Notes: a model not told the origin generated them from the sequence alone. A DNA stretch of 51,634 nucleotides from a virus (IMGVR_UViG_2579779024_000005), one strand, 5' to 3'; shown: positions 31,156-42,738, counted from the stretch's first letter. Program-made: numbers and translations.

Positions 31156-33417
31156 CTTCCATTTGACTGGCTCACTTTTTATGATGATGCCGGTGCATTT
31201 ATCTCCAGCACCAGACTTTCTATCTCAACGCCATACGTTGCATTTTTGGTAATATCCGTCAGCGTCAGCGCATTCAGCCCCAGTGTCAGACTGTCTTTTA
31301 TGACCTGGAATGCCGGGCCAGCCACTCCATTCAGTTTCGGAGTAACCGTGGCACTGCCGGCGGTGAACACCAGCTCCAGCGTCTGCCAGTCGTTACTGTA
31401 ATTCCCGAACTCGCCCAACTTTGTGTTTCCTGCTTTCTTGTGATGCATCAGATTCAGTTTGCCGTCTGTGGTCTGGGTGAAGAACGACATCAGGAACGGG
31501 TTACCAGTCCCGGTCATCGCCACGACGTCAGGTAACGCTACATCGGTATACAGATAAATTCCCAGACCGAACTGATTGTTGGTCAGTGCGCCTGACAGTC
31601 GAAACTTACAGCTCAGTCTGCCACCCCGTGTCAGCAGGGAGACTGCGTCATCCACCGGGCGCGTCAGGGACCAGGCTTTATTGCTCTGCTTGGTGATCTT
31701 AAATACACCATCTGACAACTGAATTCCGCCATTCTTAATGCTCCAGCCCTGCGCAGCAGCATCTCCGGCTGTCGGCAACAGGGAGATTGTGCGTACGGAT
31801 GCATCTTCAGACGGCCCCGATGGCGTGTCGCCGCCGGGCGAGGGTTTGATTTCCGGTGCCTTACCACTAATGAAGGCTAAGGTGCGACCGGCTACGTTCA
31901 GAATAGCAGTTGCCATACGATCGGGAATAATGCCACGACGCGCCCATGAGCTGAAATGCGTCGGGCGATTTGATGATACCCAGTTTTTGTTCGTTCGGGA
32001 TGCCGAACCGTAATAACCAGACCCGGCAATATCAGGATCTTCTGACGGGTTGTTTGTCGGTGTATTAACTCCGCTACCATCGGTCATAAAGGGAACAAAA
32101 TAAATCTGCTGGGATTCTTTACCTTTATATGCACCATATACCACTTCATATTGCGTACCGTGTTCTTGTTTCCACGCGTATGTCGTGTCGCCACAAATCC
32201 AGGGGACTGATGCCGGACTTCCACCGTGACACTGCGCCGCCAGCCCGGCAAGGTCAGCACGGAACTGCTGTACCATTGCAAGAAATCTTCCATTTGACTG
32301 GCTCACTTTTTATGATGATGCCGGTGCATTTATCTCCAGCACCAGACTTTCTATCTCAACGCCATACGTTGCATTTTTGGTAATATCCGTCAGCGTCAGC
32401 GCATTCAGCCCCAGTGTCAGACTGTCTTTTATGACCTGGAATGCCGGGCCAGCCACTCCATTCAGTTTCGGAGTAACCGTGGCACTGCCGGCGGTGAACA
32501 CCAGCTCCAGCGTCTGCCAGTCGTTACTGTAATTCCCGAACTCGCCCAACTTTGTGTTTCCTGCTTTCTTGTGATGCATCAGATTCAGTTTGCCGTCTGT
32601 GGTCTGGGTGAAGAACGACATCAGGAACGGGTTACCAGTCCCGGTCATCGCCACGACGTCAGGTAACGCTACATCGGTATACAGATAAATTCCCAGACCG
32701 AACTGATTGTTGGTCAGTGCGCCTGACAGTCGAAACTTACAGCTCAGTCTGCCACCCCGTGTCAGCAGGGAGACTGCGTCATCCACCGGGCGCGTCAGGG
32801 ACCAGGCTTTATTGCTCTGCTTGGTGATCTTAAATACACCATCTGACAACTGAATTCCGCCATTCTTAATGCTCCAGCCCTGCGCAGCAGCATCTCCGGC
32901 TGTCGGCAACAGGGAGATTGTGCGTACGGATGCATCTTCAGACGGCCCCGATGGCGTGTCGCCGCCGGGCGAGGGTTTGATTTCCGGTGCCTTACCACTA
33001 ATGAAGGCTAAGGTGCGACCGGCTACGTTCAGAATAGCAGTTGCCATACGATCGGGAATAATGCCACGACGCGCCCATGAGCTGAAATGCGTCGGGCGAT
33101 TTGATGATACCCAGTTTTTGTTCGTTCGGGATGCCGAACCGTAATAACCAGACCCGGCAATATCAGGATCTTCTGACGGGTTGTTTGTCGGTGTATTAAC
33201 TCCGCTACCATCGGTCATAAAGGGAACAAAATAAATCTGCTGGGATTCTTTACCTTTATATGCACCATATACCACTTCATATTGCGTACCGTGTTCTTGT
33301 TTCCACGCGTATGTCGTGTCGCCACAAATCCAGGGGACTGATGCCGGACTTCCACCGTGACACTGCGCCGCCAGCCCGGCAAGGTCAGCACGGAACTGCT
33401 GTACCATTGCAAGAAAT
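31156..33417. repeat. Perfect tandem direct duplication, 2 x 1131 bp, covering the 3' 1.1 kb of the esterase gene
   Basis: Copy 1 is 31156-32286 and copy 2 is 32287-33417; the translated ORFs in both copies are identical. Confidence 0.85.
31179..32306 (-). pseudogene. Duplicated 3' fragment of the nanS-p-like esterase gene (C-terminal 370 aa only)
   Basis: 375-aa ORF identical to the C-terminus of the 622-aa protein; its N-terminal codons are created by the duplication junction; lacks the esterase domain. Confidence 0.6.
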
Positions 33418-34178
33418 GCTGCTGGCTGCTGGGCGTAACTGGCATTCGTCATATCGAATTCCCCCTGCATCCAGCATATCGCCAGCAAAACGTTTTTCGG
33501 GTTTTTCTGCAATGCTGCCTTCGTGCGGAAAAGCAGATCCTGATATAACGGCTTACCCACTCCCCAGCGAGCCGAATCCTGACTGGCCCCCGTGGACTCG
33601 CTGAATGTCCCCTCCGTGCCCTGGGTGAATGCCGAACCACCACGACAGCATGGTACCAGCAGGATCCCCGCATTATTAGGGATATACGGAAGCAGTTTTT
33701 TGGCAATATGTAAGCCCTGTCCGACACAGCCGTACTGCCCTTTGCTCAGGTCAGCCCGGGGATGGTTAATCGTACTCATATCCTGAACATCATGCAGACA
33801 ATGGTCAGCAGGAATGATGTCGTTAAATACGCATACTTCACCACCGGGAGTCACTGTGTTACGACGGGCCAGTTGCTTAATGCGCGGATGGGGCGCATCG
33901 TATGAATCCGGAAGCGGAAGCCCTTCACCGTAAGCCATGGCATTGGATTGCCCGGCCAGTACGATGACGTAGTACCACTCCGGCTCAGTTGCACCACTGA
34001 CGACCACATCACCTTCTGCTGCAATCGCCTGCATCAGGGTATAAGGGGTTATGGCCACCGGACTACCAAACGGCTGCCAGCCCTCTTTCAGTTTATGTGT
34101 CAGCTTTTCCGCAAGATCTGACGGCGACGCCGCCCTGACAACATCATAGTGTTTAAATGCCATGGTTCTTTCCACCAT
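32310..34178 (-). CDS. nanS-p: Prophage sialate O-acetylesterase (NanS-p-like)
   Basis: 622 aa; DUF1737-like N-terminus, SGNH/SASA esterase core with GQSNA motif (IVLAGQSNAMAYGEG), C-terminal beta-rich domain. Confidence 0.75.
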   Translation of the reverse strand: MVERTMAFKHYDVVRAASPSDLAEKLTHKLKEGWQPFGSPVAITPYTLMQAIAAEGDVVVSGATEPEWYYVIVLAGQSNAMAYGEGLPLPDSYDAPHPRIKQLARRNTVTPGGEVCVFNDIIPADHCLHDVQDMSTINHPRADLSKGQYGCVGQGLHIAKKLLPYIPNNAGILLVPCCRGGSAFTQGTEGTFSESTGASQDSARWGVGKPLYQDLLFRTKAALQKNPKNVLLAICWMQGEFDMTNASYAQQPAAFLAMVQQFRADLAGLAAQCHGGSPASVPWICGDTTYAWKQEHGTQYEVVYGAYKGKESQQIYFVPFMTDGSGVNTPTNNPSEDPDIAGSGYYGSASRTNKNWVSSNRPTHFSSWARRGIIPDRMATAILNVAGRTLAFISGKAPEIKPSPGGDTPSGPSEDASVRTISLLPTAGDAAAQGWSIKNGGIQLSDGVFKITKQSNKAWSLTRPVDDAVSLLTRGGRLSCKFRLSGALTNNQFGLGIYLYTDVALPDVVAMTGTGNPFLMSFFTQTTDGKLNLMHHKKAGNTKLGEFGNYSNDWQTLELVFTAGSATVTPKLNGVAGPAFQVIKDSLTLGLNALTLTDITKNATYGVEIESLVLEINAPASS

Positions 34179-35670: not shown

Positions 35671-35747
35671 TGGCGCGCTGTACTGGATTCGAACCAGTGA
35701 CCGATTGCTTAGAAGGCAATTGCTCTGTCCGGCTGAGCTAACAACGC
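35671..35747 (-). tRNA. argO: tRNA-Arg (anticodon UCU)
   Basis: 77-nt cloverleaf: acceptor GCGTTGT/ACAGCGC, D-stem GCTC/GAGC, anticodon stem ATTGC/GCAAT with loop CTTCTAA, T-loop TTCGAAT, encoded CCA. Confidence 0.85.
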
Positions 35748-35847
35748 TGAATACCGATAATGGACCGCCATCGGGGACCCGCCCCCGCACCAACAACCCT
35801 GTTATCGTGTCGTCTGCTCTTCCTGATAAGCTAATGGCGGTTTGTGA

Positions 35848-35923
35848 TGGTGGCCCTTGCTGGATTTGAACCAGCGACCTGGCGATTATGAGTCGCTCGC
35901 TCTCACCACTGAGCTAAAGGGCC
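35848..35923 (-). tRNA. ileZ: tRNA with CAU anticodon, ileX/ileZ-like (tRNA-Ile2)
   Basis: 76-nt cloverleaf GGCCCTTTAGCTCAGTGGTGAGAGCGAGCGACTCATAATCGCCAGGTCGCTGGTTCAAATCCAGCAAGGGCCACCA; close to the E. coli ileX sequence as recalled. Confidence 0.8.
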
Positions 35924-38796: not shown

Positions 38797-39852
38797 TTAT
38801 GCTTTCCACTTCAGAACACCCGAATTTCTCGCGTGCATTAAAAAACGAATCAGCAACAACAGCTGGCTGCCGTGTTTTTCTTCAAAATCTTTTACCCCGG
38901 CGTGTAGTTCGCTATGGCATTTACGGCACAGCGGAATAACAAACAAATCATCAGCCTTTGTTCCCATCCCTCCCAGTCCATGACCAATGATGTGATGCGG
39001 ATCATCTGCCTGATTGCCACACGTCATGCATTTCTGCGTTTTTACCCAACGCGTGTATACAGGCATCTCTTCCCGTTGTGATTTCTGGCGCTGGAGATAC
39101 TGAGCCGGTGACTCCGGATCAACGGCAATGCTGACCACCGTCTTTTCCTGTGGCGGGTTTTGCTGGTGGGCGTGAGGCAGCGGCGCAAGATTTTTTGTGC
39201 GCTGCTTCAGTATGCTGGTGGCGGTCTGCTCTCCCGGTACGATGTCGCTTTCACGGTACATTGAGCGGATTTTTTCCGCACGCAACCCCAGCGAACGACG
39301 TAATACCGCTTCCGGTAGCGCGTCCGCCACCTGATTGCGGACCGCCCACCAGGATAATTCAGCCAGCGATAATTCCCGTTCCTGCGAGCCATTCATTGCA
39401 TGGCGTATGACGTCAATCATCCATGCAAACAGGTTTTGGTGAGCAAGTTGCCCGAGTGATTCGGAGGTCTGGTCGCGCAGCTGGTTGTCGCAGTGCCAGC
39501 ACAACACCATTGCGCCGGTACCATAACGGTGAATGACGGTTTCACTGTGGTGATAATCGCCGTGTGGCCACTGGCAGGATTTAACATGGCGCAGTAACCA
39601 GTCAGACAATGCGCCAGCGCCACCAGCAGCACGAATCACTCGTTCGTCGCTGAAAAATGGCAGTAATGATTTATCCTCCGCCAGCGGCTGGCGAACGGCA
39701 GGAACGACCCCGGACGGCAGATTACGCATGCTTTTCGGTTCCGGCTCCACCAGTACCCGGGTATTGTGGAATACCGGCATGGATTCACGGCCCGGCTTAA
39801 CGATCACCAGCCCGAGTTCCGGTACCAGAACAGGTCGAAGTAATACCCGCAC
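38797..39852 (-). CDS. DUF968-type protein with C-terminal HNH-like Cys/His cluster
   Basis: 351 aa; CMTCGNQADDPHHIIGHGLGG...CRKCHSELH; ydfU-like position upstream of rusA. Confidence 0.65.
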   Translation of the reverse strand: MRVLLRPVLVPELGLVIVKPGRESMPVFHNTRVLVEPEPKSMRNLPSGVVPAVRQPLAEDKSLLPFFSDERVIRAAGGAGALSDWLLRHVKSCQWPHGDYHHSETVIHRYGTGAMVLCWHCDNQLRDQTSESLGQLAHQNLFAWMIDVIRHAMNGSQERELSLAELSWWAVRNQVADALPEAVLRRSLGLRAEKIRSMYRESDIVPGEQTATSILKQRTKNLAPLPHAHQQNPPQEKTVVSIAVDPESPAQYLQRQKSQREEMPVYTRWVKTQKCMTCGNQADDPHHIIGHGLGGMGTKADDLFVIPLCRKCHSELHAGVKDFEEKHGSQLLLLIRFLMHARNSGVLKWKA

Positions 39853-39853
39853 G

Positions 39854-40126
39854 TTACCTCCAGATGCGTTGCTGGAATGTGCGGGACGGACGCGGTGGGC
39901 GTTCAGAGTAAGGAAGCCTGACGGAGATTATCCAGTGACGATAATCGAGGCTGAGGGCTTTCTTAATCTCGTATCCGCGTCTGCGGTAGTTATGAATTAG
40001 CCATTCGGCCTGTTCTTCAGTACATGGTGGGTGTTGGTACCAGTCGGTTTTAAATGCGTGTGAACGCCGCCCATGCCGGATGGCAAGGTCGGTATCAGAA
40101 TTGTGAAATTTGGTTTTGTGCGCCAT
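39854..40126 (-). CDS. Small hypothetical protein (nin-region)
   Basis: 90 aa; basic and aromatic-rich. Confidence 0.4.
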   Translation of the reverse strand: MAHKTKFHNSDTDLAIRHGRRSHAFKTDWYQHPPCTEEQAEWLIHNYRRRGYEIKKALSLDYRHWIISVRLPYSERPPRPSRTFQQRIWR

Positions 40127-40293
40127 CTGTTTTCTCTGCTGGCGCAGCAGGTGTCAGGTGTTCAGGCTGACGTGCGAATTGTAAACCAGAATGCCAGAAA
40201 AAAACAAAACCCGCCGAACCGGGTTAAGTGCGGGTGCGTTGAGGATGCCTGACACATCAGAGGTGGCGAGGGATTTCTCCCCCGCCGGGTCTC

Positions 40294-40449
40294 TTACTCC
40301 TCAGGTTCGTAAGCTGTGAAGACAGCGACCTCCGTCTGGCCGGTTCGGAGTCGTACCTCGCAGAGGTCTTTCCTCGTTACCAGTGCCGTCACTATGACGG
40401 TTAAACAGATGACGATCAGGGCGATTAACATCGCCTTTTGCTGCTTCAT
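40294..40449 (-). CDS. hok: Hok/Gef-family type I toxin
   Basis: MKQQKAMLIALIVICLTVIVTALVTRKDLCEVRLRTGQTEVAVFTAYEPEE; the listed 70-aa ORF extends upstream in the mok-like region. Confidence 0.85.
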   Translation of the reverse strand: MKQQKAMLIALIVICLTVIVTALVTRKDLCEVRLRTGQTEVAVFTAYEPEE

Positions 40450-40686
40450 AGCCTGCTTCCCCTTGCCTTTCGGCACGTAAGAGGCTAACCTACATTTGTG
40501 AGACATAGATTGGGCCTCAGATTAATGTTAAGCGTCTTGCAGGACGCGAAATGTTAACTGGGGCTTTTCTCTATCTGCCTTTCAGTGTTCATGCCTGAGA
40601 CAGATAGCCTCAAGCACCCGCAGCCATTCTACTTAACTCACGTCACCTCGCCAATATGAAATCAATCAGAAAGGTGATCCATAAAA

Positions 40687-41373
40687 TCACTCCTTCTCTT
40701 CTTTTCCGTAGTGGAGTTGGCCAATTTTGATAAGAGGGCGTCCCTGAGATTTGCGGTGTAGATTGGTATCGCGCAGAGAATACACACAGCCACAATATTC
40801 CTGCTGATAGAATTTTTCGCGCTTGCTGATTTCAATCATACGGGACGAGCCGCCCTGCTTGCGCCAGTTATAATCCCAGTACACCATACCCGGATAATGC
40901 GCAACAGCTCGCCGCCCACACTCGTTAACCTGCTGCATATTTTTCCAGCGTGAAATGCCCAGTGAACTGCTGATCACACTGAAACCATTTTCAGCAGCGT
41001 ACAACGCTGTCCGCTCAAAACGCATGTCAAAACACATGGTACAACGGATCCCCCTCTCAGGCTCCCATTCCATTCCTTTGGCACGTTCAAACCAGTTGTC
41101 GGTGTCGTAATCAGCATCGATAAACGGCACGCCGTGTTGTTCAGCAAAGCGAATATTTTCATCCTTACGAATTAAATACTCTTTCTGAGGATGAATGTTC
41201 GGGTTGTAGAAAAAGATGGTGTAGTCGATTCCCGAGGCCTGAAGCGCCTCCATCACTTCACCGGAACATGGAGCACAGCAAGAGTGCAGTAGTAGTTTGT
41301 TTGCCCCGTTTGGGAGCTCCAATTTAGGCCGTTTGAAATCAGCAATAGTCATAAATATTTTTATTGGGGTCAT
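40687..41373 (-). CDS. queH: QueH-like (DUF208) epoxyqueuosine reductase homolog
   Basis: 228 aa; motifs [41 protein letters not shown]. The ORF track labels this '+', but the ATG (41371-41373 reverse complement) and stop exist only on the minus strand. Confidence 0.7.
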
Positions 41374-41526
41374 GAAAATAGCACAGAGTGTAGCATCAGA
41401 GCAGGGCTATCGGGAATATATGTCTAAATCTGGTAATATCTGGTTTTGACGCAAAGCGGACAACCACGCTGGCTCTACCCTGCGCCATGAAAATGTCAAT
41501 TCACATCTGAACTAATGCTCTTTAAT

Positions 41527-41952
41527 CTAGTAACGTCTAAAATACCTAACATTTCCTTGATAAAATGCCAGTACACGCTGCATAGCTTCGCTCTTCCGGC
41601 ACTCGCGACAGATTATATTCAGGCGCCTGTCGTAGCGGCGTATTTCGCCGTCTGGTAACGACCAGATAAGGTCCGGATCAACCACTGCAGGTTTCTTCAC
41701 CTTTGCCCTTGAGAGTTTTTTGCGAGCATTTTGCCAGTCCTTACGCGCCTGTTCAGACGGGAATAACCCGTAACCAGAGTTGTATACATCGCCACTGGCA
41801 ACCAGCTCTCTGGCGAGAACACTCATCAGATATCTTGTCGCACCTGTCTTGGCTTCCAGTTGCCGCAACGTCTCGCGACCGCTCAGACGTACAAGTTCAA
41901 CAACCTGCCCTTTAATTTTTTCCCGCTCTTCTTGTGTAAATACTTTTGCCAT
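41527..41952 (-). CDS. Hypothetical early protein
   Basis: About 141 aa from the ATG at MAKVF; the listed ORF begins at an upstream TTG. Confidence 0.45.
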   Translation of the reverse strand: MAKVFTQEEREKIKGQVVELVRLSGRETLRQLEAKTGATRYLMSVLARELVASGDVYNSGYGLFPSEQARKDWQNARKKLSRAKVKKPAVVDPDLIWSLPDGEIRRYDRRLNIICRECRKSEAMQRVLAFYQGNVRYFRRY

Positions 41953-41967
41953 AAGCGCCTCCGGCAA

Positions 41968-42738
41968 TCACTTTTCCGATACAACACGGCGGGAAGAATC
42001 AGTAATCTGTCGAACAATATCCCGGTGCTTGTTCAGCTCCCGCAGCGCGGCGCAGACTCGCTCCCACTTCTGAACATCACTTTTCGCCCTGCGCAGCGCC
42101 AGGTTTGCCCTGCGAAGGGACGGAAAAATCAGCTCATCTGCTTGCGTTTCGGTAAACGATGGCAACGGCTGCACAATGTCCGCCACAGTTTCTGTTTTAA
42201 TTTCTTCCTGTGTTGCGGCTTCCCGGACTGGTAACGCAGCACCTGCTGGCTGAGGAAAGGCCTTACCATCACTTTCCGTTACCAGCGCGGCTTTCGGCTC
42301 TGCTGGTAAATTATCGCCCGGCATGCAGTAACGAAATTTACCGTTCTGATTAACGCGTGCCAGCCGCCCCGTTGCGGTTACCACCGCCAGCGTGGAAGCA
42401 ACCTTGCGAGTACTGACACCGAACTTACCCGCCAGTTCCTCACACGTTTTAGCCCCATCCTGACCGATAAACTCAATCATCATGTCTGCGGTAACTTTTT
42501 GTTCGACCTCCCCGGTCAGCATATCCTGTGCTTCAGATTTTACTGGCCGCTCTTCGGTTACCCGGGATTCACCTTCGCCAGCCAGAAACCAGGTGTGACC
42601 AGTTTTATCAACGACGCCTTTTCTTTTGAGTTCCCACAGCTCGTTGACAGCCTCTTCACGACTGATTCCAAGGCGAGCTGCCACCACATGTGAAGAGGCT
42701 TTTTTCAGTGCTTTCAGTGCGTCAGATACGGTTTCCAT
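41968..42738 (-). CDS. DUF1627-like phage protein with N-terminal HTH
   Basis: 256 aa; N-terminal winged-helix-like region; downstream of the DnaC-like gene. Confidence 0.5.
   Translation of the reverse strand: METVSDALKALKKASSHVVAARLGISREEAVNELWELKRKGVVDKTGHTWFLAGEGESRVTEERPVKSEAQDMLTGEVEQKVTADMMIEFIGQDGAKTCEELAGKFGVSTRKVASTLAVVTATGRLARVNQNGKFRYCMPGDNLPAEPKAALVTESDGKAFPQPAGAALPVREAATQEEIKTETVADIVQPLPSFTETQADELIFPSLRRANLALRRAKSDVQKWERVCAALRELNKHRDIVRQITDSSRRVVSEK

Follow-up and report, generated by a model that had tools for sequence, protein, structure and literature searches.

Queuosine tunes the decoding of the His, Asn, Asp, and Tyr codons, and the last step in the synthesis of this tRNA modification—the conversion of epoxyqueuosine (oQ) to queuosine (Q)—is the only queuosine step in Escherichia coli that depends on a vitamin that the cell cannot make, there being no de novo synthesis of cobalamin in this species. 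The enzymes of the QueH family, for their part, are B12-independent catalysts of that same last step. Physiologically, oQ- and Q-tRNA are not known to differ, which circumstance makes the benefit of the conversion itself uncertain.

E. coli makes both oQ and Q (PMC9508795). QueG catalyzes the conversion of oQ34 to Q34 in tRNA (PMC9508795; PMC4646009), and the reduction of oQ in E. coli and Salmonella is cobamide-dependent (Frey et al. 1988, cited in PMC4646009). [quoted passage not shown] Furthermore, phage infection in Shewanella is reported to switch on queG of the host and to move oQ towards Q, affecting biofilm formation and the evolution of resistance (bioRxiv 10.64898/2026.03.05.709803), which report indicates that the oQ-to-Q step can be regulated and can be of consequence in the phage–host interplay, the partner that would benefit in the present case being left unspecified.

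Our search of the literature on QueH or epoxyqueuosine reductase in phages or prophages, and on DUF208, yielded no paper on a phage-borne queH, nor any account of oQ-tRNA being converted to Q-tRNA by a member of this clade. RefSeq already names the protein QueH, so that the identity of the gene is in itself not new; but the literature that we found did not describe queH as phage cargo in about a fifth of the E. coli strains, nor as a B12-independent duplicate of a B12-dependent host step, nor as a gene under strong purifying selection. We present here the analysis of the queH located in a 51,634-nucleotide stretch of viral DNA (IMGVR_UViG_2579779024_000005), which stretch, at its full length, will be referred to as the window.

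Reading frame and family of the prophage queH

The longest queH open reading frame (ORF) occupies 40687..41373 on the minus strand, with an ATG at 41373, a stop at 40687, and 228 codons for amino acids; and no overlapping plus-strand ORF longer than 51 aa was found across 40687..41373, the frame being present on the minus strand only, as the original prediction had read it. The 228-aa product then proposed holds as the longest frame, but its start was shifted to the second ATG, at 41352, from which 221 aa are encoded. Three considerations led us to take this second ATG as the likely true start: the RefSeq CDS WP_000150294.1 ("epoxyqueuosine reductase QueH") begins there, the chromosomal homologues of Erwinia and other genera align from that codon onward, and the first ATG is an ATT in the prophage allele that we designate L004. 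In addition, the octamer ATTTATGA around the ATG at 41352 does not vary among the sequences compared, four of prophage alleles and one of a chromosomal copy, and neither of the two ATGs is preceded by a recognisable Shine–Dalgarno sequence. The coding sequence and its cysteine motifs are the following:

40687..41352, minus strand: coding sequence of queH (221 aa), starting with the conserved ATG at 41352 and with its stop codon at 40687-40689
41266..41280, minus strand: codons of the CCAPC motif, with Cys25, Cys26, and Cys29 (Cys32/33/36 in the 228-aa numbering)
41032..41043, minus strand: codons of the CTMC motif, with Cys104 and Cys107 (T. maritima C87 and C90)
40786..40794, minus strand: codons of the CGC motif, with Cys187 and Cys189 (T. 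maritima C169 and C171)

In a profile search the protein matched the Pfam family PF02677 QueH, formerly DUF208, with an E value of 1.1e-65 and 221.5 bits as against a cutoff of 23.5 bits; and the match, which covered positions 1-174 of the 175 of the profile, is by that score far beyond chance. The assignment to QueH/DUF208 advanced from the sequence was thus borne out at full length, and the signature motifs quoted in its favour are all present in the minus-strand translation; of the findings that were to count against it, neither a failure in the profile search nor a loss of the metal-ligand cysteines was encountered. The sequence of the crystallised QueH of T. maritima was also matched (E 8e-22), the identity between the two proteins being about 30–35%. 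No NCBIfam model, in turn, matches the prophage QueH, so that the name given by RefSeq is not based on an NCBIfam HMM.

We examined the conservation of individual residues in a family alignment of 66 diverse full-length representatives taken from a 50%-identity clustered library with 4775 matching clusters at E <= 0.001. The seven cysteines conserved in the family are all kept in the prophage protein (C25, C26, C29, C104, C107, C187, and C189 in the 221-aa numbering), where they align with C9, C10, D13, C87, C90, C169, and C171 of T. maritima QueH. Each of the three positions of the CCAPC motif is a Cys in 58 of the 66 representatives, the rest being mostly gaps; the corresponding counts are 65/66 for the CTMC cysteines, and 52 and 54 of the 66 for those of CGC. 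The T. maritima protein departs from the prophage one in having CCAPD, with Asp13, in the first motif, the frequency of Cys at that position indicating that CCAPC is the family norm; and the PDB contains C9S and D13N mutant structures of the T. maritima enzyme. In the T. maritima structure, the cysteines of the CCAPC, RCxxC, and YCGC motifs reportedly surround a [4Fe-4S] cluster and an adjacent iron, as Li and coworkers are said to have described in 2021. Other near-invariant residues are likewise kept (N50, N52, E58, Y59, R62, W87, E99, R103, and K137), and the prophage QueH agrees at all 110 invariant columns of a 36-sequence alignment with the chromosomal homologues.

An AlphaFold2 model built with 36 homologues was of moderate confidence (mean pLDDT 71, pTM 0.73), and its five best matches in the PDB were all QueH (7lc7, 7lc5, 9d86, 9dco, and 9deu), with TM scores normalised to the target of 0.77–0.81 and E values down to 5e-10, the PP-loop folds of the TtuA, LarE, and TilS type being far weaker matches. 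The predicted fold is therefore adenine-nucleotide-alpha-hydrolase-like, as in the solved QueH structures. The likeness to T. maritima QueH (PDB 7LC5/7LC7) accordingly comprises the profile match, the fold in the model, and the conserved cysteine motifs; as to the differences, aside from Asp13, the T. maritima gene is chromosomal whereas the prophage queH is carried by a temperate phage, and the prophage protein bears a basic C-terminal tail of ~20 residues, which extension is common to the chromosomal copies of the Enterobacterales.

The phage databases have a partial view of this protein. PHROG 3217, of "unknown function", matches only residues 41-228 of the long ORF (window 40687-41252), its profile beginning downstream of the CCAPC motif; and the members of the family in the phage database seem to have been annotated from an internal Met, without that metal-binding motif. 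The absence of CCAPC from PHROG 3217 may explain why no function was assigned to it.

The cargo position of queH and its distribution in E. coli

The window contains a Rac/Qin-like lambdoid (lambda-like) prophage of E. coli with HK97-type head and lambda-type tail genes, whose integrase gene lies at the right end, adjoining the chromosomal ompW. We obtained the gene order from direct Pfam scans and from the RefSeq annotation of the prophage of E. coli 4/1-1 (NZ_CP023844.1), whose aligned segments are 98.7–100% identical to those of the window. On the minus strand, queH is preceded by genes for a cro-like protein, YdaT, HTH_36 (O-like), an IstB/DnaC-like protein, DUF1627, and DUF977—in that order—and followed by hokD/sok, a 90-aa ORF, DUF968, RusA, the antiterminator Q, and a DNA methyltransferase; beyond the latter, also on the minus strand, come tRNA-Ile2(CAU), tRNA-Arg(UCU), and the lysis genes. 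The gene is hence on the same strand as the early-right genes from the cro-like one through Q, in agreement with the co-directionality noted at the outset. Its immediate surroundings are as follows:

41527..41967, minus strand: DUF977 gene, the last of the replication module (Pfam DUF977, E 7e-28)
41353..41526, minus strand: spacer of 174 bp between the DUF977 gene and queH
40294..40654, minus strand: hokD/mok/sok type I toxin–antitoxin locus (Pfam HOK_GEF, E 1.6e-22; Rfam sok RF01794, 120 bits, at 40444-40619)

The DUF977 gene was directly upstream of queH in every context that we examined, and the length of the 174-bp spacer was invariant in the ten contexts sampled for the exact allele (L014–L023; coordinates 4826 to 5001). 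What varies among the queH prophages is the immunity region, the set of replication genes, the type of Q, and the gene after queH: in the window a complete hokD/mok/sok locus lies immediately downstream as the variable cargo, while in L006 (4153-5792) that place is taken by a Kiwa KwaB-like gene with its partner, relBE being also there; in L022 (5851-7861), by a C5-methyltransferase with an NgoMIV-type restriction enzyme; and in L004 (5037-5375), by a DUF1971 gene. This constancy on the DUF977 side and variability on the other place queH on the border of a hot spot for cargo in Rac/Qin-type prophages. Located between the replication module and DUF968-RusA-Q, and variably present, the gene is dispensable cargo. 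Both cryptic prophages of K-12, Rac (ydaW then rzpR; L025 3753-4645) and Qin (ydfX/ydfW then flxA; L026 5406-6637), lack by deletion precisely the DUF977-queH-cargo segment found in their full-length relatives, for which reason K-12 is without a gene that about 18% of E. coli have.

That figure comes from the 5426 complete E. coli genomes, 995 of which (18%) contained the 687-bp queH ORF, with at least 80% of its length covered in 985 of those 995. The identity was at least 99% in 707 genomes, 95–99% in 181, and 90–95% in 107; the gene was almost always single-copy and chromosomal; and among the bearers were ST131, O104:H4, APEC, and some O157:H7 strains. The assembly collection has the exact 221-aa protein in over 25,000 of its index blocks, and the 90%-identity cluster of the prophage QueH has in addition members named from Shigella, Enterobacter, and Klebsiella. 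Among isolated phages, HannyBb, from bird faeces, carries queH, its full ORF being annotated as hypothetical, and it was the only such isolate that we found.

Some further features of the window deserve mention in their own right. The tRNA genes for Arg(UCU) and for a CAU anticodon (tRNA-Ile in RefSeq), situated at 35671-35923 downstream of Q and the DNA methyltransferase gene, supply tRNAs for rare codons. An exact tandem duplication of 1131 bp (31156-32286 = 32287-33417), which is not in the NZ_CP023844.1 prophage, lies inside a gene for a SASA-family carbohydrate esterase and splits that gene into the ORFs 31179..32306 and 32310..34178; this duplication could be either real or an assembly artefact. 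An IS21-family element, ISEc12 (window 4927-7802; istA 5688..7229, istB 4927..5676), interrupts a prophage outer-membrane gene of the lom/ail family, of which a fragment is found at 7344..7802. The portal-protein gene, finally, has, at 20738-21181, internal repeats that are imperfect (76–87% identity) and recur about every 162 bp.

Chromosomal relatives, selection, and putative signals for transcription

The nearest relatives of the prophage protein outside prophages, at 80–90% amino-acid identity, are encoded by stand-alone chromosomal queH genes in non-phage neighbourhoods of other Enterobacterales, so that the prophage copies belong to a clade of chromosomal origin. The sites are:

Providencia: beside tmcA
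Erwinia: between purL and glrK
Citrobacter/Klebsiella-type copy: beside a LysR regulator gene (for Citrobacter, Klebsiella oxytoca, and E. albertii, the surroundings of the gene are known from a single contig, L013)
Photorhabdus: beside benE
Ewingella: stand-alone, in a non-phage neighbourhood
Gibbsiella: between yciI and yciA

The simplest history suggested by these comparisons would be that a phage captured a housekeeping queH borne on the chromosome of a different Enterobacterales bacterium. The Gibbsiella gene (L029 2533-6654) is located between yciI and yciA/yciB/yciC, and it is beside this same conserved neighbourhood, near ompW, tonB, and yciI, that the E. coli prophage described here is integrated (L001 31281-35366); this shared neighbourhood is probably a coincidence, because the queH prophages also occupy the Rac and Qin sites.

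The gene has remained intact in the prophages, its ORF being full length in every allele examined. In pairwise Nei–Gojobori comparisons of four prophage alleles we obtained dN/dS ratios of 0.05–0.09 with dS values of up to 0.45, which combination of a high synonymous divergence with almost no amino-acid change indicates that queH has been under purifying selection while residing in prophages.

Upstream of the gene we observed the following candidate signal:

41387..41395, minus strand: candidate extended -10 element TGCTACACT (TGnTAnnnT), 34 nt ahead of the conserved ATG (41352)

The same 9-mer is present at the same place in the prophage allele L005 and in phage HannyBb, and it recurs unchanged 31 nt ahead of the Erwinia chromosomal queH, a copy whose flanking DNA cannot otherwise be aligned with the window and which has reached saturation at synonymous sites in that comparison. 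The Citrobacter/Klebsiella-type chromosomal copy has TGCTAAAAT at that position and the Gibbsiella one TGATATATT, whereas among the prophage alleles the element is mutated to TGCCACACT in L006 and weakened in L004. A generic sigma-70 scan, for its part, gave no minus-strand promoter ahead of queH and did not call TGCTACACT, for which we found no good -35; a TTGACA at 41494-41499, though a perfect match to that hexamer, was discarded for having no usable -10. We also discarded a structured RNA ahead of the gene, a riboswitch included, since a permissive Rfam search over 39800-42000 gave only sok, and the fold of the spacer was not unusual (z = -1.45). Downstream, the terminator scan found none between the queH stop (40687) and the promoter-like TTGGCG-17-TAGAAT at 40626-40654 in the hok locus; the only terminator-like hairpin of the region lies after hok, at 40208-40225.

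The -10-like element common to the prophage and the chromosomal queH constitutes moderate evidence that the gene may have been captured together with its own promoter and might be transcribable in the lysogen; in addition, the gene order leads us to expect read-through from the early-right promoter after induction. The description of queH as a gene of an early operon therefore stands as regards the early-right position, but has to be qualified to the extent that the gene, with that element upstream, is possibly a self-transcribed cargo.

Proposed role and comparison with described systems

We found queG in all of the 5426 complete E. coli genomes (at least 95% identity and at least 80% coverage), so that the check for a host queG that had been recommended was positive in every complete genome searched, including the 995 that bear queH. 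With queG universal in E. coli, the prophage queH does not fill a gap, but rather adds a non-homologous isoenzyme whose cofactor requirement differs from that of QueG. The co-occurrence of QueG and QueH was, reportedly, considered rare by Zallot and coworkers in 2017, with A. baylyi as the example; if so, a prophage-driven co-occurrence in 18% of the E. coli genomes is a modest surprise.

With moderate confidence, we favour the interpretation that the prophage carries a functional captured queH, located in the accessory-gene slot that separates the replication module from Q and maintained by purifying selection, whose product would convert oQ to Q without cobalamin. The sequence of events that we propose begins with a lambdoid phage lineage of the Rac/Qin type, which would have acquired a chromosomal queH from the Enterobacterales and kept the gene under purifying selection. 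The iron–sulfur QueH would then, most likely, reduce oQ to Q at position 34 of the host tRNA-Asp, -Asn, -His, and -Tyr; and, since QueG needs cobalamin and E. coli has no de novo synthesis, the last step of Q synthesis would become independent of external B12. The transcription of queH may proceed from the inherited promoter in the lysogen, and by early-right read-through once the prophage is induced. The cobalamin independence of this particular QueH is what we would expect from its family, and both its activity as an enzyme and the benefit of dispensing with B12 are to be read conditionally in the same manner.

A manipulation of host decoding, as originally suggested for this gene, is plausible. 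The presence of tRNA genes in the prophage had been offered in its support: the two genes are indeed there, but the support is weak, for Arg(UCU) and Ile2/Met(CAU) do not have a GUN anticodon and are thus not substrates for queuosine. A bolder reading, which we advance only tentatively, is that of a lysogenic conversion of the tRNA epitranscriptome, in which a QueH expressed from a housekeeping promoter would uncouple the maturation of Q from cobalamin in about one in five strains. Were this true, the lysogens would keep a fully matured Q-tRNA when B12 is scarce or BtuB has been lost, and there would be a measurable benefit in fitness or in the trade-off with phage resistance, the BtuB receptor being a target of phages and colicins. 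The gut is often rich in corrinoids, in which environment queH would be redundant much of the time.

A different proposal would be that queH is solely a helper of the lytic cycle, transcribed from the early-right promoter upon induction or infection in order to improve the translation of phage mRNAs rich in Q codons, with no role in the lysogen. The gene does lie inside the cro-to-Q early-right transcription unit and runs in its direction, the generic scan revealed no strong promoter upstream, the prophage contains other cargo that tunes translation (tRNA-Arg(UCU) and tRNA-Ile(CAU)), and the Q/oQ ratio changes on phage infection in Shewanella (bioRxiv 10.64898/2026.03.05.709803). The codon usage, however, lends no support to that proposal: the U-ending fraction of the His/Asn/Asp/Tyr codons is 0.557 in the late genes, 0.548 in the early ones, and 0.584 in the flanking host genes, and the overall share of those codons is equal in phage and host genes, which figures indicate no phage-specific demand for Q decoding. 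Moreover, the -10-like element common to the chromosomal queH lies upstream, and any effect would be possible only with oQ-tRNA in the host, that is, under a shortage of B12. We consequently regard an exclusively lytic role as rather unlikely. Still less probable, in our estimation, is that queH is a neutral passenger, spread by the success of the prophage module in which it resides and serving no function under selection in E. coli. The host having queG already, the absence of queH from 82% of the complete genomes, and the loss of the region from the Rac and Qin of K-12 at no obvious cost would all be compatible with a passenger; but dN/dS ratios as low as those obtained, over the synonymous divergence indicated above, would not be expected of one; the ORF is full length in every allele examined, and the gene persists across prophages with differing immunity, replication, and Q modules.

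The least probable of the alternatives, to the point of being hardly credible, would have QueH act on a 7-deazaguanine derivative in the phage DNA instead of on tRNA, as a DNA modification or an anti-restriction function. Phages do use FolE, QueC/D/E, and DpdA to put 7-deazaguanines into DNA (PMC6884629; PMC10516641), and the slot harbours restriction–modification and Kiwa genes in other prophages, with a DNA methyltransferase gene nearby. Neither the annotation of the NZ_CP023844.1 prophage nor the Pfam matches of the queH neighbours, however, contain a DpdA/TGT transglycosylase or the preQ0 genes folE and queC/D/E; furthermore, the protein has kept all the invariant residues and is 80–90% identical to the housekeeping chromosomal QueH, and it gave no PADLOC match. 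We know of no DNA base that bears an epoxide. A defence role of QueH, in whose favour the location was the one argument, was likewise set aside, there being no PADLOC match at E <= 0.01.

Returning to a captured queH that would mature Q without cobalamin, we note that, if the enzyme is active, ~18% of the sequenced E. coli would mature their tRNA unlike K-12 under B12 limitation, which would represent a difference between strains that has gone unrecognised and that travels on a mobile element, and a rare example of a temperate phage with a tRNA-modification enzyme as cargo. The gene also provides a natural genetic handle on the question whether oQ and Q differ functionally.

With respect to the described systems, QueG shares with the QueH family the reaction, oQ34 to Q34, but is non-homologous, requires cobalamin, and is universal in E. 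coli, whereas queH is accessory there (18%). The chromosomal queH genes of the Enterobacterales resemble the prophage copy in length, in start, in being stand-alone genes, and in having a -10-like element about 30–35 nt upstream of the ATG; they differ in lying among housekeeping genes at genus-specific sites, while the prophage copy is found between the replication module and Q. The E. coli chromosome, in the cases examined, has queG but no queH outside prophages. With the 7-deazaguanine clusters of phages—DpdA together with FolE and QueC/D/E—the locus has in common that a family of enzymes of the queuosine pathway is present in a phage genome; those clusters, however, contain the DpdA and preQ0 genes, whereas QueH acts after the insertion into tRNA, and the epoxide is absent from the DNA pathways. 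A further parallel is with the morons and other cargo that lambdoid phages carry between the replication genes and Q, such as relBE and hokD in Qin, to which the tRNA genes downstream of Q in the Stx phages may be added as another example: queH likewise occupies a recombination-prone accessory slot, adjoins toxin–antitoxin or defence cargo, has a function that the propagation of the phage does not need, and maybe has a promoter of its own. It departs from the morons in that no terminator was found downstream, and in that its product is neither a toxin, nor a defence system, nor a virulence factor, but a tRNA-modification enzyme.
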